Of a stretch of DNA of 64,000 bases, positions 13,637 through 60,423 are shown piece after piece. The stretch is from positions 832,001-896,000 of the forward strand of contig CAVYXA010000001.1 of the NCBI GenBank assembly GCA_963772365.1, in the 5' to 3' direction. The position numbers and the translations under genes were made by a program. Under the pieces are notes generated by a model. The model searched no databases. It was not told the origin of the DNA and worked only from the letters and a program-made list of their open reading frames with translations. The stretch is from an uncultured Verrucomicrobiae bacterium (lineage in GTDB: Bacteria; Verrucomicrobiota; Verrucomicrobiia; Chthoniobacterales; UBA10450). The number at the start of each line of letters is the position of its first letter. Position 1 is the first letter of the stretch.

Positions 13637-14045
13637 CTATTTCGCCGTGGCGAAGGCGACGTTGGTCACGCCGGCTTCGGTGCAAACGTTGAGCACGCCG
13701 ATGACATTTTTGTAAGCGCCGGTTTCATCTCCACGGATGATAACCGCTTGCTCGGAGTTGAGCTGGATCAGATTTTTCAGCAGATCGGCCAGCTGACTCT
13801 TCCGTCAGTGTTCGCCGATTCACCACCACGCTGCCGTCGGATTTCACATTCACCACCACGTCGCCCGGCGGCGCGATATGTTCTTTCGCGGCTGCTGCCT
13901 TTGGCACTTTCACATCCAATTCATTCTCATTACGCGCCGCATTCCAGGTGAGCAGGAAGAAAATCAATAACAGCAACAGCACATCCACCAACGGCGCGAG
14001 CTGAATACCGGGATGATGCAAGGGAGCGTGGCCGCGCAAATTCAT
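13637..14045 (-). CDS. exbD: Biopolymer transport protein ExbD/TolR (frameshifted)
   Basis: IQLAPLVDVLLLLLIFFL; C-terminal VIIRGDE..Y..VIGVLNVCTEAGVTNVAFAT in a shifted frame. Confidence 0.85.
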
Positions 14046-14102
14046 GGTTCGGGATTCGAGATGCGGGATGCGGGATTCGGGACACGAGATTCGGGATCGG
14101 GC
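14046..14102. repeat. Heptamer tandem array (GRGATKC)n
   Basis: gggattc gagatgc gggatgc gggattc gggacac gagattc gggatc. Confidence 0.9.
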
Positions 14103-14105
14103 ATT

Positions 14106-14486
14106 TCAGTGCGGGTCTGCGCGATGGTCGCGCTCCACACTTTCAATGAATAGATTAAGTTTCCGCCCGAGCAGATCCAGTTGGGCGGCCACATCGCGAT
14201 AAACAGTTTCGTTTGTCAACGAGCCCGTTTCAAAAATTGTTTCCAAGTGATCGATGGTTTCATCGCACGAAGCGTGAGCAAAGACGAGGAAGCGAATAAA
14301 CTCCTGCTTGTAACGCCGCCGGCCATAACCCTCAACAATATTACTGCGTCTGGATTTCGCGGAGCGGCGAATCTGGCTTGCTTCCTCATACATCTCGAAT
14401 TGCGGAAGTTCACGCAGCGTCATCCAGTGCCCGTCGATTAGGACCTGTCGCGCCAACTGCCAAATCTCAAGACTTCGATAGCTCAT
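14106..14486 (-). CDS. Four helix bundle protein (23S rRNA IVP / TIGR02436-like)
   Basis: [52 protein letters not shown]. Confidence 0.88.
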
Positions 14487-14493
14487 CCCAATT

Positions 14494-14526
14494 ATCTCGC
14501 ATCCCGAATCCCGAATCCCGCATCCC
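14494..14526. repeat. Heptamer tandem array (ATCCCGM)n, reverse complement of the 14046-14102 array
   Basis: atctcgc atcccga atcccga atcccgc atccc. Confidence 0.9.
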
Positions 14527-14527
14527 A

Positions 14528-15303
14528 TCAAATCTCGTCCTCGATGAGCACGGGCGTTCGCTCCAGACCCGCTTTTCGTATTGCAGCGAAAGCAAGGCCA
14601 AAACGTGGGTGGCCGCTGCTTCCAAGTCGGAAATCAATCTCTGGGCACGTCCGCGAAAAAATGCGTAAAAGATCATGGCAGGAATGCCGATCGCCAGACC
14701 GGCGGCCGTATTGACCAGCGCCTGACTGATTCCCTGCGAGAGTGCAACATAACGGGCCGATCCGATGTCCGTGCCGAGCGCACCGAAGGAATGGATGATC
14801 CCGATCACAGTCCCGAGTAATCCAAGCAAAGGTGCGATCATGCCGATATCAGCCAGATAGACGACCCGATTATTCAGGCTGGCCGCGACGCGAGTTCCTT
14901 CCGTTTGTGCGATCTCGCGGACTTGCTCGAACTGAGCATTGGGATTTTTGGTGGTGAAATCGAGCACCTTTTGCACGATTCGCGCGATGGCCTCGCCATG
15001 CCGATTGGATACCGCCAGCAGACCGAGATAATCGCGTTTCCGCAGAAGCGCGTCGGCCGTGGCCATGAATCCGCTGGAGACAATGGCCCCGCGGCGGATC
15101 GTCATCAGATAAGTGATCACGAGCATGATCGAGAAGATCGACAACAGAAAGAGCGGGATCATCACCGGCCCGGCTTTGATCAGCGCATCGAGCACGGTTT
15201 TTCGGTGCGGCAAATCGATCAAGGATGAAGGCGTTGGCGTCGCAGTTTGCGCGAAAAGCGGCGTCGCAATCACCGCCGCGATGAGGAGGAAAATTTTTTT
15301 CAT
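14528..15303 (-). CDS. exbB: MotA/TolQ/ExbB proton channel (3' frameshift)
   Basis: [36 protein letters not shown]; probable true end ..VLIEDEI* at 14528. Confidence 0.9.
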
Positions 15304-15404
15304 GCGGAGAATCGGTTAATCATAGACGAGACCATTGCCGATGCAATAGACCTACAGACGTGTCCGCCCGCTAATTTGCTCAAACTTAACAGTTGTAACT
15401 AAAG

Positions 15405-40254: not shown

Positions 40255-41230
40255 ATGAGTTCCGCAATGCGCAGCGGAACAGGAGGCATGGCGAGAAGTC
40301 AAAGATGGCTGGCGGCCGCTTTATGGCGATGTCGATCGAATGGGCGTAGCCGTCGAATGGCACGATTTCCGGTTGGGACGTTCATTCAATTGGGGCCGCA
40401 CTTTTCATCCGCGCAGTCTGGAATTTTGCTTCAATCTCGGAGGGCGCGGTGAGGTGGGCGCTGCCGCCAAGGCTGATTACGCTCCGGGGAATTCCGGCTA
40501 TTACGCGGTGGGCGATGAGCCACTGCCGGCCTCGCGTCGGGCGAATGATCGTCATCAATTTGTCACGCTCGAATTTTCACGCGCCCATTTGCAAAAGCAA
40601 TTCGTGCAAAACGAGGCCGATCTCGAACCGCAAATCCGGCAGGTGATTTTCGGCGATAAAGATGAAACGGTCGTTGCTCCGACGCGGCCGATGTCGATCG
40701 AGCACGTGCAGTCGTAGCCAGTCTGGCTGAACCGCCCGTTTCAAAGGCGGCCCGGATCATCTGGTATCAAAGCAAAGCGCTCGAACTGATGGCGCATTTT
40801 CTGTTCGCGCCCGAAGGACCAGGAATTTTTCTGCATGCGCCAGAAACGCGTCGCTCGGGAGCGGGTCGAGCGGGTAAAGGAAATATTGGCTCGCGATCTG
40901 GCGAATCCGCCGACGCTGGAAATGCTTGGCCAGGAAGTCGGTTGCAGCCCGTTTTATCTGAGCCGGATTTTTTCCCGCGAAGTCGGCCTGACGATTCCGC
41001 AATATCTTGCGCAATCTGCGCATGGAACGCGCGGCCGAATTGTTGCGCAGCGGACGCTATAACGTCACCGAAGCCGCCACTGAAGTCGGTTATTCCAGTC
41101 TGAGCCATTTCAGCAAAGCGTTTTGCGAGACGATTGGTTGCTGCCCGGTGCTTTATCCCGCCGCGAAGAATGTCGATCCTGAGATCCGTGAATCGAGAAT
41201 CGAAGATCGTGAATCGGCTGCCGATGTAAC
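40255..41230 (+). CDS. AraC-family transcriptional regulator (multiple frameshifts; ends approximate)
   Basis: [52 protein letters not shown]. Confidence 0.85.
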
Positions 41231-41260
41231 GATTCTAACGACTTCAGCGATTTACACCTG

Positions 41261-42790
41261 ATGAAAATCTCCCGCGCCCTCATCTCCGTCTCCGACAAAA
41301 CCGGCGTTGCTGCATTTGCGCGCGCTTTGGAACGCCAGGGCGTGGACATTATTTCCACCGGCGGCACGGCCGAATTGCTGCGCAAGAAAAAAATCCCGGT
41401 GCGTGAGATTTCCAGTTTCACGGCGTTTCCCGAGGTGCTCGAAGGCCGGGTTAAAGACGCTCCATCCGCGGGTTCATGGCGGGTCTGCTTTACAAACGCG
41501 GCAATCCGAAGCACGAGGCGGAAGCGCGCGAATGCGGCTTTGAGCCGATCGATCTGGTGGTGGTGAATCTTTATCCTTTCGAGGAGACCATCCGAAAACC
41601 GAACGTCACGTTGGCCGAAGCGATCGAGAACATCGACATCGGCGGCCCATCCATGATTCGAAGCGCAGCCAAGAATTACGAATCGGTCACTGTGGTTGTC
41701 GATCCTGCCGATTACGACACCGTGCTTGAGACGATGCGCGAGAACAATGGCGAGACCACGTTGAAATTGCGCGAACGACTTGCCATCAAGGCGTTCATCA
41801 AAACCTCGGATTACGACCGGGCGATCGGCAATTTTCTGAACAAAGAACAAACTACCGACGGTTCGTTTTCGATTTCGCTCCCACTGGCCATGCGTTTGCG
41901 CTACGGAGAAAATCCGCACCAGAGGGCGGCGCTCTACGGCGATTTCGAGCGGCATTTCGAAAAACTCCACGGCAAAGAACTTTCCTTTAACAACATCCTC
42001 GACATTAGCGCAGCCACGAACCTGATAGGCGAATTCGAAGCGCCAACTGTCGCGATTCTGAAGCATACAAATCCATGCGGAGTCGGTTCCGATGTCGATC
42101 TTCGGGAAGCCTGGGAGAAAGCGTTCGCCACTGACAAGCAGGCGCCATTTGGCGGGATCATCATTTGCAACCGACCGATGAACGAATCGCTGGCCAAAGC
42201 TATCAGCGAAATTTTTAGCGAGGTGATCATTGCGCCGGAGTTCGATCCGAAAGCGCGCGCGATTTTGCAGAAGAAAAAGAATCTTGCGGCTGATCCGGCT
42301 GGTATCTCTCGGTCAATGAAGCGCGGCCAAAGATCGACATCCGCTCGGTGTTCGGCGGCGTTCTGGTGCAGGATACGGATGGTCCGAACGAGATCCCGCA
42401 ACGCGTCGTGACAAAGCGAGAACCGACAAGAGCTGAACTGGACGCGATGCTTTTCGGCTGGCGCGTGGTCAAGCATGTGAAATCGAACGCGATTGTTTAT
42501 GCCGGGGCGGATCGGACGCTGGGAATTGGCGCGGGACAAATGTCGCGGGTCGATGCCTCTCGCATATCGCGATTTGGAAAGCGGAGGAAGCCGGCCTTTC
42601 TCTCAAAGGCAGCGCCGTCGCCAGTGATGCGTTCTTTCCATTTCCCGATGGATTAATCGCCGCCGCCGATGCCGGCGCGACCTGCGCGATTCAACCGGGC
42701 GGTTCAGTCCGGGACAATGAAGTGATCGCCGCCGCAAATGAGCGTGACATGTCGATGATCTTCACCGGCATTCGCCATTTCCGGCATTGA
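41261..42790 (+). CDS. purH: Bifunctional AICAR transformylase/IMP cyclohydrolase (frameshifted)
   Basis: [82 protein letters not shown]. Confidence 0.96.
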
Positions 42791-46350: not shown

Positions 46351-46779
46351 TCAGGCCGCGCCGGCGAGCGTCGGTTCCTGCCTGGCGCGCAACTGAGAAG
46401 TAGCCAGCACTCGGGCGAGCACGCAGTAAAGCTGCTCAATCGGCAAATTCTTACTCACGTAACCATTGGCGCCAGCCCGCAAAGCTGCATGCATCTGCTC
46501 CTCATCGTAGCCCACGCCGGTAAAGACGACGATGGGGATTTTGTCGTTGATCTCCCTGATGAAAGAAATGAGCGAGATACCATCGACTTTCGGCATTTTA
46601 AGATCGACAACCACGACGTCACAATCGTGGTGGGCGAGCCAATTCGCGGTCAAGAAACCATCGGTCAAAGCTTCGCAGGTATGGCCTTTTTGGCGGAGGT
46701 AGGTTATGAGGAAACGGGCAATGCCTGGATCATCGTCGATGATAAGGAATTGAGCGGAGTCCCGGGTCGGATCTTTCAT
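46351..46779 (-). CDS. Single-domain response regulator (receiver)
   Basis: LIIDDD, VVVDLKMPKVDG, VFTG, GANGYVSK. Confidence 0.9.
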   Translation of the reverse strand: MKDPTRDSAQFLIIDDDPGIARFLITYLRQKGHTCEALTDGFLTANWLAHHDCDVVVVDLKMPKVDGISLISFIREINDKIPIVVFTGVGYDEEQMHAALRAGANGYVSKNLPIEQLYCVLARVLATSQLRARQEPTLAGAA

Positions 46780-47909: not shown

Positions 47910-47952
47910 AGTAGCACTTCATTCCGGGCAAGGGGCAGCGGCATAACGCGGA

Positions 47953-48920
47953 TCATTTGGCCACGCTCGCCCGCACTTCGTCCAATTTGCCGGCCGAACC
48001 AAGCTTTTCGTTCTTGTGGGCAATAAAGTTTGCGTATTCCTGGACGAAAATTTTTCCGGATCGCGAAAATCGAATTTCTCGGGATGATCGCGGAAAAATT
48101 CCCGATGCACCCGAGTCCAAACCAGACGGCCATCCGTGTCGATGTTGACTTTGGTCACGCCCAGTTTTGCCGCGGGAAGGTATTCCTCCTCGTTCACTCC
48201 GCGGGCTGAAGGATCGAGTTTACCTCCGGCAGCGTTGATTCGCTCGACTTCCGATTTGGGAACACTCGATGAGCCGTGCATCACAATCGGCGTCGGCGGC
48301 AAACCGGCGGCCTTCACCTTGTCACGGATTCCCTCGATTACTTCGAAATGCAGGGATTGCGTGCCTTTGAATTTGTAGGCCCCATGGCTCGTGCCGATCG
48401 CCGCCGCCAACGAATCACATTTGGTTTGTTTAATAAACTCGACCGCTTCGTCCGGGTTGGTGAGACAGGCGTGTTTTTCATCCACACTGATGTCTTCCTC
48501 GACTCCACCCAGCATCCCGAGCTCCGCTTCAACGCTGATGCCCTTGGCGTGCGCACGCTCGACCACGCGTTTCGTGATCGCGACATTTTCCTCAAAGGAC
48601 TCGTGACTGGCATCGATCATCACCGAGCTGTAGAAGCCGGACTCAATGCAATCGTAGCAAGCTTCTTCATCTCCATGATCGAGATGCACGGCGAAAATTG
48701 CCTCCGGGAAAATCTCCTCCGCCGCCCGGATGATGGCTTCGAGCATGCTTTTTTCGGCGTATTTCCGGGCGCCTTTGGAAAGCTGGATGATAAATGGCGC
48801 CTTGCTTTGGACATTGCCGCGGAACAATCCGAGACATTGTTCCATGTTGTTGATGTTATATGCGCCGACAGCAAATTTACCGTAGGCGACTTTATAAAGC
48901 TGAGCGGTAGTAACAATCAT
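47953..48920 (-). CDS. fba: Class II fructose-bisphosphate aldolase (3' frameshift)
   Basis: VHLDHG, SSVMIDAS, VEAELG, AIGTSHGAYK, VMHGSS, KVNIDTD. Confidence 0.95.
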
Positions 48921-49034: not shown

Positions 49035-51070
49035 TCAATGTCCGTTGCGGCTGGCGGGCAGGATGACGTTGACCAGTGTGCCATGCGAGGAAGAATCGAT
49101 TTCGACCCGGCCATGATGATCAAAGACGGTGCGTTTCACGATAGGCAGGCCAAGACCGATGCCACGCGGTTTGGTCGTGCAAAATGGAGAAAAGACTTTC
49201 TCCTTCATTTCCGGCGCGATTCCTCGCCCATTATCACGAACTGTGACCATCACTCCCGTTGCCCGCTTCCCCGCCCGGAGCGATTTGGCTGAAAGCGTGA
49301 TGCGTGGCTTGTTTTTGCCTGATAAAGCCTCAGCCGCGTTAGCGACCAGATGCGCGAATGCTTCGGCCAATGCGGTTTCGTCGCCAAAAACTTTGGGCAG
49401 ATCCTTGGGCAGGGACATTTCCACAAGCAATCCGCCATCGGTGCGAAACTGGTCTTTAGCCATGTTGATCCCTTTCTGCAACGCGCCGCGGACATCGAGC
49501 GGCTTCAACACCAGTTCTGGTGGATGAGCAAAAGTGTTGATCTGAGTAATGATCTTATCGAGGCGATCAATCTCTCTCAGAACGATCTGGTTGAATTCCT
49601 TCCGGAAATCTTTGTCGTCGAAGCGTTCCGGGAGCAATTGAGCAAAGGTCTTGATCGCGACGAGCGGATTGCGAATTTCGTGCGACATACTGGCGGCCAA
49701 ATCGCTCCAGAAGGCAGCGCGCTCGGCCAGCGCTTCCTTGTCCCGGAGTGTTTGCTCGGCAGTGAGATCCTCAATGACTGCGACGGCGCCGAGTAACTTG
49801 CCAGCATCGATAAGTCGCCGCGCCTGTACCGAAATTTTTCGCCGCGTTTGATGGTCCGTCCATTCTTCTATGAGGGGATCCTCTTTCGCATCCAGAGTTT
49901 CGCGCAGCATTCCGGCCAGTCTACTGCCAGCCGCCTCAACTGCGTGATTCAAAACATATTCACTGGAAAAGCCAAGAATCTGTTCTGCGGTCGGATTTAG
50001 CCAGCGAACAATGCCTTCCTGATCGGTTGCGATGATGCCGGGAGGAATGGCCTTGAGCAGGGTTTCAGCGAGAGTCTTCTGCAACGTTGTCTCTTCGTGC
50101 AGAAGCGCGTTCTCCAGCACAGTCGAAACGTGCTCGGCCAGCATCATCACCACTTCCAGATCGCGATCATCGAAACCCTGGCCATTGAAACGCTGGCCGA
50201 AAAACATCCAGCCAAGAATTTCATCGCGCGCAAACAATGGGATGATCGCTTCCGCGCCAAACGAATCCAGCGCTCGCCGCATAAGAGCGCGCTCTTTCTC
50301 CTCCGGTGTCTGAATGAGATTCTCTCGTGAAATGATCAAGGCCCGCCTCTCGAACCAACGCACCAGTGGATCGCGCTCGCCAAATTCCAGCTCGTAGGTT
50401 TCGCGCAGGCAACGCAGACCCGCGCGAAAGCGGTAATTTCCGTCTTGCGCGCTACGGGAAAAAATGCCGACTCGCGTCACCCCTGCGGCATCGGCGAAAC
50501 TTTCCACGACGTTGGCCAAAAGAAGATCGACATTGTCAAACCGGCGAAACACGCGCGGAAAGCGGAGCAAGGAAAACGAAACGCCGCCGCCGGGACGGCT
50601 CGGCGGAGAAACATCGACTGCATTTGCCAGTGCGGGAGACGTTACCTGCCCGCCGTAACTTTGATGAAGTTTCGTCGATCTTTCGCGGAGATCACGATTT
50701 TCCTGCAAGACTTGGAGATGCTCGAAAGCTCTCCGGGCTATTGCCTGGAAACGGCGTCGGTCTACCTCCAACTTTTCCGTTGCATAGATTTCAAGCTGCT
50801 CGGCTTCGCGAAATGGGTCGGACCCCGGAATGCCGAGGGCGATGATTAATACATCGGGCCATTCGCTTTGCACCAACTCGAGAAGATCGCCGCTTCCCGG
50901 GCTCGCAAATCCATGATGAGAATCGCCGAGCCGGCCTGATGAAGCACTGGCTCGAGGCGTTGCGGCTCGGTCACGTGACGGACCTGCGAGAATGATCTCA
51001 GGTAAACTTTGATTCGTCGGCTAAGATCGGGGTCCTGGGTGTACAGAATGGAAGCGTGCGAAGGAGTCAT
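49035..51070 (-). CDS. Cytoplasmic sensor histidine kinase (receiver-like/GAF/PAS/HisKA/HATPase; frameshift near 50880)
   Basis: [26 protein letters not shown]; start overlaps the upstream kinase stop (ATGA). Confidence 0.88.
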
Positions 51071-53577
51071 GCCGCCGCCACCTCTCGGTCGAACCTGACC
51101 AGCGGAAGCATGATATGAAATGCAGTTCCCTTCTGCAGTTCACTTTCAACCTCGATCTGGCCCCCGTGCTCTTGAATGATTCCGTGTACAACGGATAGCC
51201 CTAATCCCGTGCCATAATCTTTTGTTGTGAAAAACGGATCGAAAACGTGAGCGATATCCTCGCTGCGTATTCCTTCCCCGGTATCTCGAATCGTGACACA
51301 AAGCACTTCCGCCGTGTCTCCGTTAGGCGAAGCTGTCCCTGAGCCCCATTGATCGTCTGTGCGAATTTCCGTAGCCACGCTCAGTTCGCCCCCATTTTTC
51401 ATCGCATCCATTGCATTAATAAAAAAATTCAGAAAAACCTGTTCCAGCTGATCCGAGTCGGCCCGTATTGTATCAACATTGGCGTCAAAAAAACGAGATA
51501 ATTTAACCTGCTTCTGCTGGAGCCGGTGATCCACGAGGCGGAGTGATTTCTCCAGAATTTCATGGACGTGCATCGGCTTGAGAACCGGCTTGGCCGGACG
51601 GGCGAACCGAAGCAATTGATTGACCAGACTGTCGATCCGTTCGATCTCATGGCCAATGAGGTTCGAGAACGTTTCCCGAAAATCCGAGTCCTGATAGCGT
51701 TCCGGCAGCAACTGAGCAAAGGTCTTGATGGAAACCAACGGGTTTTTGATTTCGTGCGCCATTCCGGCCGAAAGCGTGCCCAGGCTGGCCAGGCGATCGC
51801 TCCGGCGAATCTGCAATTCCAGCCGTTTAATTGAAGTCACATCCGTAAGCACCAGCAACGCCCCCAACATCTCCTGCTCCTGACCGTGGAAAACGGATGT
51901 GCTGGCTCTCACAACCACAGCCTCATCGTCGAAACGCAAAACGATTTCCCGATCCACCCGGTTCTCGCCTGTGTTCAGGGTTTCACGCAACTGTTCGGCC
52001 AATGACCGGGGGAGATCATCGAGCGACGCATCCACCATTTCATTGGGATCGATTCCGATGATCTGACCCGCTTCGTTGTTGAAAACGGTGATCCGCTCGT
52101 CTGTTCCGACCGCGATTACGCCGCTGGTCAGTTTTTCCAGCAAGGTTTCATTATAAATCTTCGCGTTTTGCACCTCGGTGAAGAGTTCTGCGTTTTCAAT
52201 CGCGACCGCGAGTTGTCCGCATAGAACCTGCAAGGCATTCTGCTCGACAGTTCCATAGATTCGCCCCGAGCGTCGCGCACCAAGCAAAAGGAGCCCGGCC
52301 AGTTGATCGCGAGCATAAATGCCCATGGCCAGCGCGATCTGGAGCGAATCTAACTGTCGCATCACACGGCGAAGCTCCGGCGTCGATCGGATTCGGTGCA
52401 ACTCGTCCAGGACAAGTGGTTCGCGACTTGAAGAAAGCTGCTCAATTGTGGCCTGATCTCGTGTCAGTTCCAATCGATAATGGGAACCAGGATCGACAGC
52501 CGGATACGCCTGGGAAAAGGCATGTTTTTGCGGCAACAAAATAAAGACGCGATCGGTCTCGACTGCTTCGGCCACAGTATTGGCGAATCGATCGAGCAGA
52601 TCGCTTAGAGTAGTGACGGAGCTAAGAATTTTCGCAGCTTTACTGACCGTCGCGCGAAAATCGAGCTGATGAGGCCGAATAAAAAGCCGTTCGGCCAAAC
52701 GTTGCGAGATGCCACGTGCCGGAGCCATCGCAATAGCGACAACGATGGCCGCTGCGACATGCGCGATGGAACGATGATTAGGATTGGAACCAACAACTGT
52801 TGAAACGAGCCACCAAACCACGGCGTAAACGGCGAGAAGATACCCCACGAGCAACCCGTAGGAAATCGAGCGCCGCAAAAGCAACCCCACATCCATGATC
52901 TTCTGCGTGGCAATCCCATAGGCGATTACAAGGCTGAACACTACAATTCGAAACGGAGCCAGCAGAGCCAGCTCCGATCGATCAACGAACAGTCCCAGAG
53001 CAAAAGACAACAGGGTGGTGACGACGGCTACACCAGCTCCAATGAGTATAAACGCAAGCTCGGCGCGCTTACCTGCCGTAACTTTTCTCAAGTCATTCGT
53101 GTAATTGACCATCACTGCGAGTCCGGCGATCCCAAAGTAACCAAAATAAACAATCGATGAGTGCTTGTGATAGATGGGAAGAATGGCTCCGGTGTGCTCG
53201 GAAAAACGCCCGCCTGCCAGAAACCAACTTGTTTGGCAAAATGCAGCCACAGCAGCATAACCAACCCACCAAATCCACGAATTGCGCAGCAGTTGCCACC
53301 AAGACCGCTCGCTGTATTTGATCGAAAGCCTCAGCAGGTTGAAGAGCGGCAGGGTAAGCGCTCCCATTGCCGATGCCTCGCGGATATAAAAGGCGGCAGT
53401 TAGAACGGTCTTGGCATTAAATGTTAGACACAAGCTCCCTAGCCATCCGCCAATAGCCAGAGACAAAAAAAGAAAACACTGATTCGACTTTCGCCTGGGA
53501 TTAGCCTGAAATACGATGGCACCCAGCGCGAGTTGAACGATAATCGCGGTAAGTGTGGGCGTGACGGCGCTGCTCAT
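51067..53577 (-). CDS. Membrane sensor histidine kinase (N-terminal multi-TM, GAF, PAS, HisKA)
   Basis: About 8-9 hydrophobic helices, GAF (LAVAIENAEL), AHEIKNPL, NAMDAM, DTGEGI, FFTTK..GTGLGL. Confidence 0.93.
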   Translation of the reverse strand: MSSAVTPTLTAIIVQLALGAIVFQANPRRKSNQCFLFLSLAIGGWLGSLCLTFNAKTVLTAAFYIREASAMGALTLPLFNLLRLSIKYSERSWWQLLRNSWIWWVGYAAVAAFCQTSWFLAGGRFSEHTGAILPIYHKHSSIVYFGYFGIAGLAVMVNYTNDLRKVTAGKRAELAFILIGAGVAVVTTLLSFALGLFVDRSELALLAPFRIVVFSLVIAYGIATQKIMDVGLLLRRSISYGLLVGYLLAVYAVVWWLVSTVVGSNPNHRSIAHVAAAIVVAIAMAPARGISQRLAERLFIRPHQLDFRATVSKAAKILSSVTTLSDLLDRFANTVAEAVETDRVFILLPQKHAFSQAYPAVDPGSHYRLELTRDQATIEQLSSSREPLVLDELHRIRSTPELRRVMRQLDSLQIALAMGIYARDQLAGLLLLGARRSGRIYGTVEQNALQVLCGQLAVAIENAELFTEVQNAKIYNETLLEKLTSGVIAVGTDERITVFNNEAGQIIGIDPNEMVDASLDDLPRSLAEQLRETLNTGENRVDREIVLRFDDEAVVVRASTSVFHGQEQEMLGALLVLTDVTSIKRLELQIRRSDRLASLGTLSAGMAHEIKNPLVSIKTFAQLLPERYQDSDFRETFSNLIGHEIERIDSLVNQLLRFARPAKPVLKPMHVHEILEKSLRLVDHRLQQKQVKLSRFFDANVDTIRADSDQLEQVFLNFFINAMDAMKNGGELSVATEIRTDDQWGSGTASPNGDTAEVLCVTIRDTGEGIRSEDIAHVFDPFFTTKDYGTGLGLSVVHGIIQEHGGQIEVESELQKGTAFHIMLPLVRFDREVAAA

Positions 53578-54818
53578 CCAGGTTGAACACGATTTACGAT
53601 CATTGTGCTAGCGGTCCCGCCGAGGCCGCGGACGTTGATTAAAGCCCGGTCGATCTTAGTTTTTCGCGGCCGAAACTGAACAAAATCGAGCTCGAAGCTC
53701 GGGTCCATAACTTCGCAGTTGGCCGTCGGCGGGATAACTTGATCCCGCAGGGTTAACGCACAAGCGGCTACTTGAAATGGGCCAGCAGCAGAGAGGGCAT
53801 TGCCCGTGACGCCTTTGATTGAGCTGACAGCGGTACGATAGACAGACGCTCCAAAAACTTTCTTTAAGAGCTCGACTTCTATTGCATCTAGTTGCGGATG
53901 GCCCGGTCCGTACGCCGAAACGTAGTCGATGTCGGTCGGAAACAACCCACTATTGGCAAGCGCGAGTAGCATTGAATCTTCCAAGCCGGATGCGGGTTTC
54001 GTGGTGTCGCGATCACGGCACTTGCCACAGCCTAGGACTTCTAAATAGATGTTCGCACCACGCGCGACCGCACAATCAAATTCTTCCAGCACGAAAACGG
54101 CAGACCCCTCCGAAATCACACCTGAGTCACGTTCTAGATCGAAAGGTCGGCTTGCCTTTCCCGGTTCGCTGTTCCGATAAGAAGCCAAACCACCTGCAAT
54201 AAAGCTTCCCATGACTAGTGGAGTGATCGGAGCATCCGTACCGCCAGCAATTGCCAATTCCGCGCGACCAGAGCGAATTAAAGCAGCAGCATCAGCCATT
54301 GCATCCAGCCCCGATGTACAAGCGGAAGATACAGTAGCGGCGTTTGCAGAAGCTCCAATTCGATCAGCGATGACATTGGCGGGCGTTGATGGAATTGCCG
54401 CAGCCGAGGTCGTTGTCGCCATCCGATTGGGTCCATGCGCGTTTGTCGATTGATACGCGGTCTCGATTAAGTCCATTGCGTTCATACTCACTCCAATCAC
54501 AATTGGCACCGGGCTTGGCAGCTTAGGCCGAATCGGATCCAGCCCGGCATCTTCCAATGCCATCATGGTTGCCGCGTAGGCCAACTGTGTATGGCGCGCC
54601 ATGCGTTTGGGCTTGAGTTCCGGTTCGATGTAGTCGAGCGGATCGAAATTCTTTACTTCTCCGGCAATGCGGCTTTTGAAATCGCTCGCATCAAACAAGG
54701 TGATTGGTCCGATACCGCTCCGCCCGGCCAAAAGCGATTCCCAAAACGGCTCAATACCGATTCCGTTTGGGGCAACAATACCCATGCCGGTGATAACAAC
54801 TCGATTCTGCCTGGTCAT
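53574..54818 (-). CDS. FabF-like beta-ketoacyl synthase with atypical active site
   Basis: RVVITGMG, SSACTSG, ASRPFD..R.G.V.SEG; SAYGPGH replaces NAHGT, KGVTGNAL replaces KS.TGH, NVRGLGG replaces NSFGFGG. Confidence 0.9.
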   Translation of the reverse strand: MTRQNRVVITGMGIVAPNGIGIEPFWESLLAGRSGIGPITLFDASDFKSRIAGEVKNFDPLDYIEPELKPKRMARHTQLAYAATMMALEDAGLDPIRPKLPSPVPIVIGVSMNAMDLIETAYQSTNAHGPNRMATTTSAAAIPSTPANVIADRIGASANAATVSSACTSGLDAMADAAALIRSGRAELAIAGGTDAPITPLVMGSFIAGGLASYRNSEPGKASRPFDLERDSGVISEGSAVFVLEEFDCAVARGANIYLEVLGCGKCRDRDTTKPASGLEDSMLLALANSGLFPTDIDYVSAYGPGHPQLDAIEVELLKKVFGASVYRTAVSSIKGVTGNALSAAGPFQVAACALTLRDQVIPPTANCEVMDPSFELDFVQFRPRKTKIDRALINVRGLGGTASTMIVNRVQPG

Positions 54819-54991
54819 GCGTGCACAACGTTACACAACTGAGGTAGCAAAAAAACAACCCGATTGTCGATCTTGATCCAAATGATCTAAAAAAAGTGGA
54901 TAGTCGCCGGGAAAGATCGGCCTCTCGCGCCGGATTCTAGAAAGTATATCACGTCCAGTCATTATGTTCTTTTTCCGAAACTAGAGCCGCG

Positions 54992-55021
54992 TTATTCACA
55001 AACAAATCTCACTTATTCACA
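54992..55021. promoter_or_regulatory. Direct repeat TTATTCACA-N12-TTATTCACA in a divergent promoter region
   Basis: Two exact 9-mers matching the DnaA-box consensus TTATNCACA, 21 bp apart. Confidence 0.5.
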
Positions 55022-55182
55022 AATCGCAGCTTGCGCGCCAACCAAAAGCATTTCAACATTGGCCCCAGCTATGGCCCCCCAGCCTTTCCTTACCAGGCGG
55101 CATCGTGATCGAATCCCCAGAGTTTTCATCTATGTCCGTCTGCGGCACGCCGTTAGCTTCTACTCCCGTTGCCTACACACAC

Positions 55183-56334
55183 ATGACAGCTACGTCTAAT
55201 CAGCCGGAAATCCTCGTCATCGATGATGAAATAGGCCCGCGCGAAAGCCTTCGGATGTTGCTTAAGCCGGATTACCAAGTCCATACCGCCGATTGCGTGG
55301 AAGCAGGTCTCAAGCTGCTCAAGGAGAAAACGCCCGATACCATTGTGATGGATATCCGGATGCCCGGCATGAGCGGCATCGATGGCCTGCGCAAAATTCG
55401 CGAAATTGATCCCAATCTTTCCGTCATCATGCTAACCGGCTTCGGCGCTCTGGAAACTGCTCGAGAAGCAATCCGGCTCGGCGCAAATGATTACATCAGC
55501 AAGCCGTTTGATGCCACTGAAATGCGAGAAGTCATCGACCGCAACGTCGAGCGGACGCGTCTTCATCGCACCAGTGAACATACTTCCGCCGAGATCAAGG
55601 AACTGAACAATCGCCTGCTCAAGGAACTCGCCCAGAAAGAACGACTCGCCGCCCTGGGCCAGGCTTCGGCCGAATTCGTCCATGATTTGGGTAACCCGCT
55701 AACGATCGTATGGGGTTACGTGCAACTTCTGGCCAAAAAGCTGGAGGGCTCTGATAATGGCCAGGCGCCCGACAAAGCCTTGTCCGTTCGGGAACTGAAC
55801 ATCATCGAAGAAAATGTCCGGCTTTGCCGCGAACTGCTGACCATGTGGCAAAGTTACGGTAGCGTTGACGCCTGTATCCGCAAACCGATTTCCGTATCGG
55901 ACATCGTCCGTGAGATTCTCAAGGGTGTCGGTCAAATGGCAGCCGAGAATGGAATCGAGCTGAAATCGGATGTGTGTGAAGATGCCTGCTCTCTTCTCGG
56001 CGACCCAGTTCAAATCCGGCGCGCCATTCAAAATGTCGTGATCAACGCATTGCAGGCTTCGACGGAGAAAAAGCACCCGGTTTTGGTGACGTGCGTACGG
56101 AAAGATTTTTATGTCGACATCATTGTCGAGGATGGCGGGACCGGAATTGATGCAGCGCACATCGAAAAAATCTTTGATCCATATTTTACCACTAAAAAAG
56201 GCAGGAGCGGAACCGGCCTGGGCCTCTACATCACGAAAAAAGTTGTCGAGGATCACAATGGTTCGATCAAAGTAGATAGCGCCATCGATAAGGGAACGGT
56301 TTTCACGATCCGGCTGCCTCTCACGAACAATTAA
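55183..56334 (+). CDS. Hybrid response regulator / histidine kinase (REC-HisKA-HATPase)
   Basis: [50 protein letters not shown]. Confidence 0.92.
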
Positions 56335-56448: not shown

Positions 56449-58503
56449 GTGGCATCGGCGTACCAAGTCGCACCATTATTCTTAATCCGGATGGCCAGCG
56501 TGCCGTTTGATGCAATTGAACCGCTGTCCACGCCGGAGACGATCAAGATTGCGCGTGAAATAATTGCGGCGCCGAACGATGTAATTGCTTCGGGGCGCCT
56601 GAGTGAAATGGTGGTCCGTGAAGTCGGGTCAGCGCGAGCCTCACTTTGGAACGCCGCTCGGAATTGGCTCGCGCCCTATCTTGTTTTCGCAGGCAGCGGA
56701 GGCGTGCGCGAATTGCTTGCGCTTCTGCTGGGCAAACCAGATGTTGATCTTACGCGACGCAACTCGCGCGCCGGCGATCGCGAACGACATTTGCTCCTAT
56801 TTATTCAAAGGATCACCGCTAAGAACGACACCTTCAGTCGTTTCGGCCCCACTAGCTGGGGCAGAGTCGAACGCGACGAAAACGGAATCACCATCGATGT
56901 CCTACCGGGGATCCGTGCGCAGGAAGCTTTTCTGGAGCGTTGGACAGCTCACGCCGTCGCTGATGTAATCAATTCCGAAATTACCGATGCCAATATTCGA
57001 GTGCCGGCGCTCGAGCCGCATGCTTTCGAAATCTTGTGCGAGGATGTGGAAAAATGGCAAGCCGGCGCAGCTCGCGAAAGGTGGATCTCAATCCTCCGTT
57101 CCATAGCGGCCCTGCCGAAAAAATTCGTGGCCGCAGTGGATACAAGCGATCGACAGTCGATCCTCGATGAGGCTCGGGAACGACTCGGCGCAGTTGGTGC
57201 AGTTCGAACCCGCACCGATCGCTTCCTTTATGCAGCGACTAATCCGATCGGCGAAGAATGTTTTCGCAAAAGCAATTTCTCAATCCCCCAAAGTTCGATC
57301 GACGAACTCGTCGAGGATAGCTCACCATGGATCGATTTGTTCCGTGACACCTATGCATTCGTAGCCAGTCGCGTCGCTGCGACTCTGCGCCAGATCATGG
57401 AAAGAGCGGGCGGGAAAAGCGGCGCTATACCGCTGCCAGTATTCTTAAAGACTTGCGAAGTGGCGAGGCTTCCACTAACCGGCCCGGGTTTGATCGCGCC
57501 CGCAGTTATAGCCTTTCAGGAAGTCAAAGCCGCGTTTGCGGACCGGCTGCGGCGGCATCTCGATCTTAATGAATACGAACTTACGGCGGACGATTGTCAC
57601 GTTGTGCGAAACAATTTTGAATATTCAAAGTTTGATGAATACACCTATCCGTCAGCCGATTTGCAGATCGCAGCGGAGTCCACACAGGCGCTCGCGCGAG
57701 GCGATTATCAATGGCTGCTGGCAGAATTGCATCCAGCGGCGGCGCTGCTTCAACACTGCATGTATTGGGCGTGTCCGGACAAGCCGGTGCTGAATGCCGC
57801 AATCGCTCGTACAACTCTTGGCCGGCCGAATTTTCATTTTGGGTTTTTTGCGGCCGATTTCACGGCGCACACCTGCGTGCACCTTTTCGATGCGCTGCCG
57901 GACTTAACCAGCTTCGTCGCGCCGCAGCGTAGTAATCCTAAATGGCGAACGATTTCTCCCGCCGAAACAGAAGTATATGCCGATCAAAACACAGGGGACG
58001 TTTGTCTCCGTAAGATCGACAGTCGCGAGTATCTCGGGTCATTTGCTCGGGCGTGGGTGATTCCGCTTGGTTTTCATCCCTTCCAATTTGGAATGGCGCC
58101 GCACACGCCACGGCTCCATTGCGGCAAAGTGATTGTCCAACGGCGTACTTGGACAGTTACCATAGAGGAATTTGGCTCCGGAGACTTCAAGGGCGTTTCG
58201 AGCGATCTCGTCCTGGCCGTTGAGAACTTGCGCGCACGGCGCGACTTGCCGCGATACATTTACATTCGTCCAACCGAGCAAGCGCTTCGCCGCAGCGGTG
58301 CGGAAGGGCGCGACAAAGATACCAAGCCGGTTTTTGTCGATCTTGAGAGCTATCTGTTTCTCGAAATTTTTTATCGCTGGTTAATCAAAGCGGGAGAACT
58401 GGAAGTAACCGAGATGTTGCCCGATCCGGATCATTTGCTCTGGAAAGAACCGGATGGCCGCCACACCTTCGAGCTGCGCACGCTCATTGTTCCACGCGAA
58501 TGA
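56449..58503 (+). CDS. Stand-alone lantibiotic dehydratase N-domain protein (small LanB / PEARL-like)
   Basis: FLIR.ASVP, QRI.AKNDTFS.FGP..WG, HTPRL..G.VIVQR..W, LPRYIY, KP.FVD.ES, VTEMLP....LW..DGR.TFELR; no elimination domain. Confidence 0.8.
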   Translation: MASAYQVAPLFLIRMASVPFDAIEPLSTPETIKIAREIIAAPNDVIASGRLSEMVVREVGSARASLWNAARNWLAPYLVFAGSGGVRELLALLLGKPDVDLTRRNSRAGDRERHLLLFIQRITAKNDTFSRFGPTSWGRVERDENGITIDVLPGIRAQEAFLERWTAHAVADVINSEITDANIRVPALEPHAFEILCEDVEKWQAGAARERWISILRSIAALPKKFVAAVDTSDRQSILDEARERLGAVGAVRTRTDRFLYAATNPIGEECFRKSNFSIPQSSIDELVEDSSPWIDLFRDTYAFVASRVAATLRQIMERAGGKSGAIPLPVFLKTCEVARLPLTGPGLIAPAVIAFQEVKAAFADRLRRHLDLNEYELTADDCHVVRNNFEYSKFDEYTYPSADLQIAAESTQALARGDYQWLLAELHPAAALLQHCMYWACPDKPVLNAAIARTTLGRPNFHFGFFAADFTAHTCVHLFDALPDLTSFVAPQRSNPKWRTISPAETEVYADQNTGDVCLRKIDSREYLGSFARAWVIPLGFHPFQFGMAPHTPRLHCGKVIVQRRTWTVTIEEFGSGDFKGVSSDLVLAVENLRARRDLPRYIYIRPTEQALRRSGAEGRDKDTKPVFVDLESYLFLEIFYRWLIKAGELEVTEMLPDPDHLLWKEPDGRHTFELRTLIVPRE

Positions 58504-59291
58504 AAATCATTGCCATTGCCAATCAGAAAGGCGGCGTGGGAAAAACCACTACTGCGGTCAACCTCGGTTGCGCCCTAGCGGAAAAAGGGCAGCGCATTTT
58601 GCTTGTCGATTTTGATCCTCAGGCCAACGCCACTAGCTCGTTTGGTTTGCAAAATTTGAATGGATCGAGTCTGTATGAACCGTTACTCGGCGAAGCATCG
58701 ATCATCGACAAGATTGTTCCGACTCGCTGCGAGCGCTTGTTCATAATTCCGGCCGATCTCGACCTGGCCGGCGCCGAATTGGAAGTCGCCAGGATGGAAA
58801 ATCATCTTTCCCGTCTGACGGAAACTCTCCAGCCGCTGCGCGCCGACAATACTTTCGATTTCGTGCTGCTCGATTGTCCGCCGTCTCTCGGCATCTTAAT
58901 GACAAACGCTCTGGCCGCCGCCAATGAGCTTCTGACTCCAATCCAGTGTGAGTATTTCGCTCTGGAAGGCCTGGTGAAAATTGTGCGCGTAGTCGAACAA
59001 ATCCGCGATTCCGGCGCGAATGATCGCCTCGAGATCGGCGGCATTGTCATGACGATGTTCGACAGTCGCACAAATTTGAGCGCCCAAGTTGTAGCGGATG
59101 TGCGCAAACATTTTGGACCGCGCGTTTACGAAACAGTGATCCCCCGCACTGTTCGATTGAGTGAAGCACCAAGCTTCGGCCAATCGATCCTCGAATACGA
59201 TCCGCGCGGACCTGGCGCCAGCGCCTATCGCGCTCTGGCAGAGGAATTCCTGAAGCGACAGTCGATCGTGTTTGCAACCCAGTCTCACTGA
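58500..59291 (+). CDS. parA: ParA/Soj family ATPase
   Basis: IANQKGGVGKTTT, DPQANATS, DCPPSLG, QCEYFALEG, VRLSEAPS.G. Confidence 0.93.
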   Translation: MKIIAIANQKGGVGKTTTAVNLGCALAEKGQRILLVDFDPQANATSSFGLQNLNGSSLYEPLLGEASIIDKIVPTRCERLFIIPADLDLAGAELEVARMENHLSRLTETLQPLRADNTFDFVLLDCPPSLGILMTNALAAANELLTPIQCEYFALEGLVKIVRVVEQIRDSGANDRLEIGGIVMTMFDSRTNLSAQVVADVRKHFGPRVYETVIPRTVRLSEAPSFGQSILEYDPRGPGASAYRALAEEFLKRQSIVFATQSH

Positions 59292-59304: not shown

Positions 59305-60423
59305 ATGCCGAAAACGAAGACAAAAGCGGCCAGTAAAAATATTCATGCCGTCCTCGGCTCCGATGAAGCTGAGGTCAAACGTGTGGCGACGGAGTTGTCC
59401 GAAAAGCTGACGCCGCCGGGCGCGGGCGACTTCGGATTGGAAATTATCGACGGCGCGGTCGAGAGCGCCGATCAGGCGGCGGCTCGAATCGGATCGACAA
59501 TTGAAGCATTGCGAACGTTACCTTTCCTCGGTGGCGGAAAATTGGTTTGGCTGAAGAACGCGAATTTTCTTGGCGATTCGCCTGCGAGTCGGGCTGCCGC
59601 TGTTCAGGAACGTCTCGATGAGTTGGGCGCGCTGATCGAAAGCGACCTTGGCCCCGACGTCACGTTCCTGATCAGTGCCGTTGATGTAGATAAACGCCGA
59701 TCTTTTTACAAACTGCTTTCCAAACGCGCCGAACTGCAGGTCTTCGACAGGCTCGATTCATCGCGAACCGGCTGGGAAGAGGAAGCAATGGAACTCGTTC
59801 GGAACCATGCCAGGAAAAAGAAACTTCAATTCGACGATGATGCGCTTGAGTTGTTCGTCCTGCTCACCGGAGGCGATACCCGCCAGATCGAAAATGAATT
59901 GGACAAGATCGACATCTTTCTCGGCAAAGAGCGCAACATCAGCGCGAACCAAGTGCGCGAACTCGTGCCGCTTTCCCGGGCAGGAGTGATTTTTGAACTG
60001 GGAAATGCGCTGGCCGAGCGCGATCTGAAACGAGCGCTCACACTGGTGCGGCGACTTCTCGACCAGGGCGAGAGCGCCATCGGCATCTTGCTGGTTGCGG
60101 TTGTGCCGACCATCCGAAATTTGCTGCTGGCGAAAGATTTGATGGAGCGGCATCGATTACCGCGGCCGCATGTTCCATTTCAGTTCATCTCCGCGATCAA
60201 TCGGCTCCCCGCCAACGCTACAGAACATCTGCCGCGCAAGAAGGATGGCGCGATCAGCGGTTATGCACTGGGGATTGCCGCTCAGCATGCTGACCGATTC
60301 CAAACCGCGCAGTTGATCGAAGGCATGCGAGCGTGTCTGGAAGCGAATCTCCAGCTGGTTACAACCCAGCTCGATCACGAGCTGATCTTGACGGAGACCG
60401 TGGTGAAGTTACTGGGGCACTGA
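59305..60423 (+). CDS. holA: DNA polymerase III subunit delta
   Basis: LPFLGG.KLVW.K, DKRR.FYK, L....GGD...I.NEL.K, IFEL.NAL. Confidence 0.8.
   Translation: MPKTKTKAASKNIHAVLGSDEAEVKRVATELSEKLTPPGAGDFGLEIIDGAVESADQAAARIGSTIEALRTLPFLGGGKLVWLKNANFLGDSPASRAAAVQERLDELGALIESDLGPDVTFLISAVDVDKRRSFYKLLSKRAELQVFDRLDSSRTGWEEEAMELVRNHARKKKLQFDDDALELFVLLTGGDTRQIENELDKIDIFLGKERNISANQVRELVPLSRAGVIFELGNALAERDLKRALTLVRRLLDQGESAIGILLVAVVPTIRNLLLAKDLMERHRLPRPHVPFQFISAINRLPANATEHLPRKKDGAISGYALGIAAQHADRFQTAQLIEGMRACLEANLQLVTTQLDHELILTETVVKLLGH

Follow-up and report, generated by a model that had tools for sequence, protein, structure and literature searches.

What does a peptide aminoacyl-tRNA ligase (PEARL) do where no peptide for it is in sight? 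The question is raised by a gene at 56449..58503 (+ strand) of a stretch of 64,000 nucleotides, here called the window, from contig CAVYXA010000001.1 of an uncultured Verrucomicrobiae bacterium (GCA_963772365.1). The answer proposed here is that its product may be a tailoring enzyme of a signalling cassette: we see an even chance that the enzyme takes an amino acid from aminoacyl-tRNA and attaches it to the small acyl signal of the cassette, at the carboxylate, and so makes or inactivates that signal. The observed base of this reading consists of the protein's fold, its catalytic residues, its co-inheritance with a cassette of a ketosynthase (KS) and kinases, and the presence, in other lineages, of other small-molecule enzymes in the slot which it occupies. 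The PEARLs listed in PMC12945691 are all cluster-borne, and in the literature searched PEARLs are described from specialised-metabolite clusters only; the one in the window stands in a signalling cassette. If the proposal is true, it implies a tRNA-dependent step in the making or quenching of a bacterial lipid signal.

The enzyme and its active site

By sequence tests the enzyme is PEARL-type and lies outside any pearlin cluster. The open reading frame (ORF) encodes 684 residues from a GTG start, and its TGA overlaps the ATG of parA (ATGA at 58500-58503). An earlier note, made from the DNA alone, had described this arrangement and quoted five motifs (HTPRL, KPVFVD, TEMLP and ELR among them), all of which are in the translation; its suggestion of a PEARL-like identity is borne out by the domain match, the fold and the invariance of the catalytic residues. 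The sole Pfam match is PF04738 (E 1.5e-10, 40.4 bits, cut-off 28). An AlphaFold2 model built from a 78-sequence alignment (pLDDT 94.8) aligns over residues 8-681 with the glutamylation domain of TbtB (6ec8; Z 21.8, rmsd 3.6 over 575 residues), followed by GodF (Z 17.9), MibB, NisB and MadB and then, weakly, by ATP-grasp ligases, as expected for the LanB glutamylation/ATP-grasp fold. The GTG start is supported by the invariant Arg14, which lies ahead of Met15 and which the 670-aa database version (P0001) would lose. The ORF is intact despite nearby frameshifted genes in the assembly, and with a median dN/dS of 0.17 (0.07-0.31; 350 non-independent pairs) the gene is, judged from its substitutions, under purifying selection.

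With TbtB, GodF, MibB and NisB as its closest solved structures, the protein might be taken not for a PEARL but for an enzyme of LanB-B type, which glutamylates Ser/Thr side chains. However, the structure library held no PEARL, so LanB matches are expected, and the split LanB-B enzymes TbtB and GodF are only 14-16% identical to the window protein, do not have the phosphorylation residues of PEARLs and depend on an elimination partner. The protein stops 7 residues past its ELR motif, hence no elimination domain is fused to it, as the earlier note had stated, and no separate partner was found either, although this last point is weak: PF14028 matched in 0/41 genomes (the window genome and 40 relatives), and the same search was silent in every control genome. 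In the alignment printed in PMC11212132 (Fig. S12) PEARLs show QR-x3-KN(D/E)T, SPD and E-(I/L)-R, and dehydratases differ there; the window protein has QRITAKNDT, SAD (which keeps the Asp of SPD) and ELR, that is, the PEARL-type and not the dehydratase residues. The partners of class I lanthipeptide and thiopeptide LanB enzymes are missing along with the dehydratase motifs: LanC was found in 0/25 family genomes, the window genome included, by a search that matched once elsewhere among the 41, and YcaO likewise in 0/25 (one match elsewhere among the 41, and 5/14 controls). A LanB-B assignment is thus scarcely credible.

Residue conservation was analysed over 123 locus proteins, including that of the window, and 40 distant representatives, after dropping 28 of the 151 locus candidates as partial or lacking the N-terminal motif. 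R121, K125, D404, E426, R555, R565, K626, D631, E655, E675 and R677 are invariant in 123/123 and 40/40, and R14 is kept in 123/123 and 38/40. Equivalence with BhaB7 was read from motif and spacing against the printed alignment (PMC11962472, PMC11212132). On this reading the phosphorylation residues D558, E813 and R815 of BhaB7, as well as its E575, have their counterparts in D404, E675, R677 and E426, all kept, and the residues of the tRNA 3'-end and the amide step, R208 and R34, correspond to R121 and R14, both found in 123/123. The position of Y205 holds Tyr in 118/123, with Phe118 in the window protein and four others. Hence the protein is like the PEARLs, or LanB-C enzymes (TglB, BhaB1/B5/B7, AmmB2), in having a LanB fold with the glutamylation domain only and in its ATP-grasp and tRNA-end residues. 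Unlike them, it has no scaffold peptide or biosynthetic cluster, has Phe in place of Tyr205 and a deleted recognition domain, and is a single-copy, family-wide gene in a two-component cassette; a PEARL profile search found no second copy in the window genome.

The deleted domain is a segment of about 65 residues which is found in 101/123 family PEARLs and missing near residue 180 of the window protein. Folded alone, it matches the recognition elements (RREs) of MibB, TbtB, TbiB1 and lasso B1 (Z 5.8-7.2). Its boundaries and lengths vary between lineages in the 22/123 proteins from which it is deleted, and its state requires 6 changes on a quick ParA tree, although well-supported branches force just one. 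In BhaB7 and TglB the RRE seems dispensable (PMC11962472), and the RRE-less 684-aa protein offers a compact scaffold for ligase engineering.

The RRE bears on whether the enzyme follows a classical pearlin pathway, with the scaffold peptide encoded elsewhere in the genome and the cassette merely regulating it. Such a dispersed scaffold would agree with most characterised PEARLs, which use a ribosomal one (PMC12945691), with the RRE-like domain kept by 101/123 proteins, and with distant relatives found in real clusters, e.g. beside an MNIO enzyme, a carrier protein and a phosphoenolpyruvate (PEP) mutase (L144, described below); but the RRE was lost repeatedly, from the window protein among others, and the genes that a scaffold pathway would call for are missing. 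Neighbours were counted over 160 loci from two partly redundant scans, the denominators below being the loci with enough flank. Across these no scaffold is co-encoded with tailoring enzymes, as in pearlin clusters of peptides made on the ribosome and modified after translation (RiPPs), and no RiPP enzyme, tailoring enzyme, peptidase or transporter is conserved beside the PEARL. The gaps of the block, including the divergent intergenic region, hold no conserved small ORF in the family loci, which agrees with the earlier note's failure to find a local precursor. A heuristic scan of 24,130 short ATG ORFs left 84 acidic or leader-like candidates, none of which by eye resembled a PEARL scaffold, so that no acidic leader peptide was convincing. 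With LanC and YcaO also missing from the 25 family genomes, we regard a dispersed scaffold as distinctly unlikely. Nor does the block contain an assembly line of non-ribosomal peptide synthetase (NRPS) or polyketide synthase (PKS) type with a ureido-forming C domain, such as accompanies SnaE-type PEARLs, the KS being a stand-alone one.

Inheritance with a ketosynthase-kinase block

The PEARL operon begins with RR_HK, a receiver-HisKA-HATPase hybrid kinase (55105..56334, +). A divergent intergenic region (54819..55104) separates it from the operon of the KS, a FabF-fold ketosynthase with a deviant active site (53574..54818, -). The KS stop is overlapped by the start of HK836, a membrane sensor kinase with a HisKA_7TM-like N-terminus (7TM, seven-transmembrane) and GAF, PAS, HisKA and HATPase domains (51067..53577, -), and a second kinase, HK613 (GAF-PAS-HisKA-HATPase), follows at 49035..51070 (-). 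RR142, a single-domain response regulator with an end-anchored L-x-G-A-A tail, lies outside the block (46351..46779, -). HK613 is split by a frameshift in the window (50846-51070 and 49035-50876) and is a single ORF of about 670 aa in relatives. The N-terminus of HK836 resembles HisKA_7TM clusters (score 0.93-0.94), and Asp83 and His193 of RR_HK are unchanged in every non-gapped row of 130.

Adjacency to the PEARL block is close to complete for RR_HK (123/125 loci), KS (105/106), HK836 (86/87) and HK613 (73/74). On the other side a ParA/Soj-type ATPase gene (58500..59291, +), translationally coupled to the PEARL, follows in 137/142 loci, within 10 bases in 87/142. The earlier note had coupled the ligase to a parA-holA pair, and both genes do follow as it said, parA being a steady neighbour; holA (DNA polymerase III delta; 59305..60423, +) adjoins in 0/115 loci, its adjacency is peculiar to the window genome, and a PEARL-holA coupling was accordingly rejected.

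Four separate losses set the two sides of the gene apart. They remove the PEARL, the KS, the three kinases and RR142, and ParA is retained in all four, with parA orthologues of 75-80% identity. In the genus g194 (PEARL in 0/23 genomes) an enoyl-CoA hydratase gene stands between lpxD and parA in place of the block in 4/4 fetched loci, and genome-wide no orthologue was found of KS or HK613 (12/12 genomes each) nor of HK836, RR_HK or RR142 (5/5 each). In G417 fba abuts parA, the five block genes and RR142 being gone. G493 (92% complete) and G499 (95%) have lost RR142 and keep fused remnants of HK613 and PEARL beside an intact parA. That the losses in g194 and g201 were independent is supported by their different junctions and by tree position. 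Over the 200 family genomes, five of them unpublished, the PEARL profile matched in 166 (two of these with remnants only), RR142 in 162 and KS in 154, the latter two with 0/23 in g194. The co-losses, together with the variable tailoring-enzyme slot in other Verrucomicrobiota (see below), point to a tie between the PEARL and the KS-kinase block; among the claims of the earlier note, its speculative link to this block has come out best supported. With lineages that lost the block by natural deletion and a list of six genes to work with, the system can be tested by heterologous expression.

Several further candidates for loss were set aside. G413, G426, G473 and G431 are without PEARL and KS, but also without parA, and are 70-84% complete. 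Other genomes negative for KS and positive for PEARL owe this to contig ends in 6/7 fetched cases, the seventh being G411. As a separate observation, in L167-L170 of g194 the enoyl-CoA hydratase gene replaces the whole stretch from fba to the PEARL.

The same losses bear on the idea that the PEARL is a partner of ParA, serving chromosome partition or control of the cell cycle, with the kinase-KS link being passive gene order. The tight parA adjacency favours it, and one locus (L151) keeps the PEARL-parA pair without the cassette. Nevertheless, parA persists in the four loss lineages and in PEARL-less sister families, an O-methyltransferase lies between PEARL and parA, or in parA's place, in 3 loci, and the ParA C-terminus is unconserved, all of which makes this function very improbable.

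The wider cassette and the substrate of the ligase

The cassette occurs without a PEARL in other lineages. The 7TM sensor part of HK836 was found in 48/301 phylum genomes, and 20 outgroup loci were taken from the best matches on long contigs, plus 3 sister-family loci. Most outgroup loci have the order KS-HK836-HK613, often with an NtrC-like regulator, and a FadL-like gene (15/20) and RR_HK (17/20) run divergently from these; the FadL-like gene occupies the divergent intergenic region in most of them. We define the slot as the co-oriented gene right behind RR_HK, the PEARL position in the window genome's family. In 17 outgroup loci it holds a FAD-linked oxidase (8), an S-adenosylmethionine (SAM) methyltransferase (4), a radical-SAM enzyme (1) or a receiver protein (1), and a second radical-SAM enzyme lies about 1 kb from an outgroup slot. 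The sister family has, in 3/3 loci, an adjacent gene for a PaaK-like carboxylate-activating ligase, and the O-methyltransferase that 3 family loci carry right behind the PEARL shares 57-59% identity with one within two outgroup cassettes. By these comparisons the cassette is older than its PEARL. The comparison exposes a phylum-wide KS/7TM-kinase/FadL cassette with interchangeable tailoring enzymes, which, from its gene content (L198-L217, L171-L173), resembles a separate lipid-signal system as yet undescribed; a literature search, with subscription journals largely outside it, found no description of this cassette or of the PEARL gene. Behind the methyltransferase that fills the slot at L205 lie two further enzymes (13765-15326), an OlsB-like amino-acid N-acyltransferase and an acyltransferase.

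This last locus would also suit an output unrelated to the signal, namely that the PEARL is downstream of the cassette and makes an amino-acylated metabolite or membrane lipid, as would the divergence of the PEARL operon from the sensor genes, expected of a regulated output. However, the chemistry in the slot varies by lineage while its position beside a FadL-like porin stays the same; this agrees better with the handling of one ligand class, and we hold an unrelated output to be improbable.

The KS has changed along with the slot. Among 99 loci Cys167 is found in 99/99, Tyr303 in 97/99, Asn340 in 98/99 and Arg397 in 99/99; Tyr303 and Asn340 replace both catalytic His, and Arg397 stands where outgroup orthologues have His. 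Aligned to 1j3n it does not show the Cys-His-His triad of FabF (KAS II), and its score is below the FabF cut-off. The triad is Cys-His-Asn in 16/17 outgroup KSs and Cys-Trp-Asn in the 3 sister-family loci. The gain of the PEARL alongside the loss of the FadL-like gene and two KS active-site changes suggests a changed ligand. From a stand-alone KS, a FadL-like porin and a 7TM sensor we infer that an acyl-derived ligand is both made and sensed by the cassette (compare PpyS).

In the mechanism proposed here the KS would make or hand over a fatty-acyl-derived acid, whose carboxylate the PEARL would phosphorylate with ATP to an acyl phosphate; transfer of the amino acid from aminoacyl-tRNA would then give an N-acyl-amino-acid conjugate. 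Conjugation would make or inactivate the ligand of the 7TM kinase, and the signal would travel via the kinases to RR142. Carboxyl-modifying enzymes that switch an acyl signal on or off are known from the fatty-acid methyl ester signalling of Ralstonia (PhcB/PhcS, PhcS being a histidine kinase) and from the plant GH3 acyl-amino-acid synthetases. To our knowledge neither uses aminoacyl-tRNA, and the likeness drawn here is one of function. Photopyrone and dialkylresorcinol signalling (PpyS/PluR) likewise places a stand-alone KS beside a receptor, and PpyS has the Cys-His-Asn triad (PMC4578411) of the outgroup KSs; in contrast, the cassette KS is FabF-like and not FabH/OleA-like, the sensor is a 7TM histidine kinase and not a LuxR protein, and the triad in the window genome's family is Cys-Tyr-Asn. 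For the ligase step, SinB1/SinB2 work on a small nucleoside in the sinefungin pathway (10.64898/2026.05.21.726688) and SnaE, of threopeptin, on a short non-ribosomal substrate (PMC11212132). These PEARLs without a ribosomal scaffold set a precedent for forming an amide on a small carboxylate, but they belong to complete natural-product clusters, unlike the window PEARL, which has no adjacent NRPS, modular PKS or exporter.

Several observations count against a signal-tailoring role. The KS, being without both catalytic His, may make nothing, and the searches found neither a FadL-like gene nor an exporter at the window locus, and no FadL-like gene genome-wide. The cassette does without a PEARL in other lineages, 2/17 outgroup loci have nothing co-oriented in the slot, and the PaaK-like gene is co-oriented in only 1/3 sister-family loci. 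Contiguity of the five block genes allows passive co-deletion, the only separate events being that of RR142 and the internal PEARL deletion of G493, and an approximately unbiased (AU) test did not reject a single origin of the g194 and g201 losses (p 0.126). In G424 (94% complete) PEARL and cassette are kept and RR142 is absent; in L151 PEARL and parA stand behind an unrelated pyrophosphatase-like gene with no cassette; and G411 has an intact PEARL with a frameshift-riddled KS and 7TM region, perhaps an assembly fault. RRE loss, which agrees with a small-molecule substrate, also fits peptide substrates, given the BhaB7 and TglB precedent. Taken with the evidence above, the chances that the window protein is an active PEARL-type ligase serving the tailoring step of a signalling cassette appear evenly balanced. 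Regarding G411, its locus (L261, 10300-12155) shows many frameshifts in KS and the HK836 7TM part, no excess of substitutions and intact neighbours, and is either a pseudogene or a local assembly fault.

The profile of RR142 raises another candidate substrate. The PEARL could use charged tRNA to lengthen RR142 and/or HK836 by an amino acid at the Ala-Ala end; a ClpXP degron would thereby be hidden or altered, and the output of the kinases would follow the charge state of one tRNA. RR142 shares the genome profile of the PEARL, being gone in all four losses, and it is the PEARL and not the wider cassette that it follows: of 24 genomes without a PEARL, 23 of which were selected because they carry the cassette or its 7TM kinase, none showed an orthologue exceeding 36% identity. 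Its tail, end-anchored after a linker of variable length, ends in Ala-Ala in 26/30 loci and 23/29 further matches, with all four Ala codons in use. HK836 ends so in 72/77 family loci against 3/23 outgroup loci, and synonymous codons vary in both tails. The window genome has ClpX and a tmRNA tag ending in LAA, an AA-to-DD change blocks ClpXP (PMC7142297), and BhaB7, for which a PLALA end is a recognition signal, is able to label folded proteins that bear a short tag, although it does not accept a PAAAA end (PMC11962472). However, Ala-Ala ends are common in the window genome's signalling proteins (4/28 receiver ORFs and 2/21 kinases; 21/1,379 long ORFs), so an ordinary degron suffices to explain such tails. 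The HK836 tail overlaps the start and the ribosome-binding region of the next gene, and this overlap of the start codon, together with the 4/28 receiver ORFs, weakens it as evidence. Tail modification would moreover leave the small-molecule enzymes in the same slot of other lineages unexplained, and the PEARL with its cassette does without RR142 in G424. We therefore consider tail modification unlikely. If true, it would represent tRNA-dependent C-terminal tagging of regulators, a ribosome-independent counterpart of the N-end-rule aminoacyl transferases, and would tie a phosphorelay of abundant soil bacteria to aminoacyl-tRNA supply.

Distribution, origin and neighbouring genes

The nearest named records of the PEARL are from Chthoniobacterales. 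It is near-core and single-copy in a large soil family of this order, which we take to be the one holding Ca. Udaeobacter, and outside the family tallies it was found in 3/401 phylum genomes, all three from the same family, and in 0/5 sister-family genomes. The family PEARLs form one clade (support 100, FastTree, 66 rows) inside a radiation whose proteins are 35-47% identical and include four with the names Anaeromyxobacter or Kofleriaceae. Acquisition by transfer from Myxococcota-type clusters is plausible. High-GC outsiders make up only about 4/80 metagenome loci in the distant-alignment scan, the remainder being mostly from the window genome's own family, and the contexts of the Myxococcota-type relatives are known from three contigs. 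On these the relatives occur in tandem, beside an NRPS, or with an MNIO enzyme, a carrier protein and a PEP mutase. A plasmid search gave just weak Streptomyces/Kitasatospora matches (<32% identity).

The high-GC contigs deserve description of their own. In L144 (1-11340) a pair of PEARL-like genes flanks an MNIO (PF05114) enzyme, a partner protein, a carrier protein, a PEP-mutase-like gene, an AMP ligase, a KS III, a RidA-like gene, a methyltransferase and a MATE-like transporter, some of them named by eye; this is an unexplored cluster. L110 (650-5574) has PEARL-like genes in tandem with no visible precursor, and in L087 (19-3611) a PEARL-like gene lies immediately upstream of an NRPS adenylation domain.

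Within the window, an Rfam search at the gathering threshold gave 0 matches over 43-64 kb, and a promoter and terminator scan gave 2 and 5 sites respectively, below the shuffle means. Split or altered genes in the regions 40255-42656, 47919-48920 and 49035-51070 (an AraC-like regulator, purH, the end of fba, and HK613) suggest indel errors in the assembly.

Among the family loci, an O-methyltransferase stands directly behind the PEARL in L071 (12574-13686 and 13765-14574), L029 and L030, and L071 has a duplicated 3' piece of the PEARL fused to an unrelated ORF fragment. A GNAT gene usually comes after parA, commonly as a GNAT acetyltransferase with a uracil-DNA-glycosylase-like gene, the latter named by eye, and no parB is found beside parA in the window or the examined loci. 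Finally, parA carries in-frame inserts of about 45-70 codons after residue eight in L025, L152, L153, L155, L156, L013, L048, L079 and L088; lying within the lead-in to the Walker A region, these are probably small mobile repeats.

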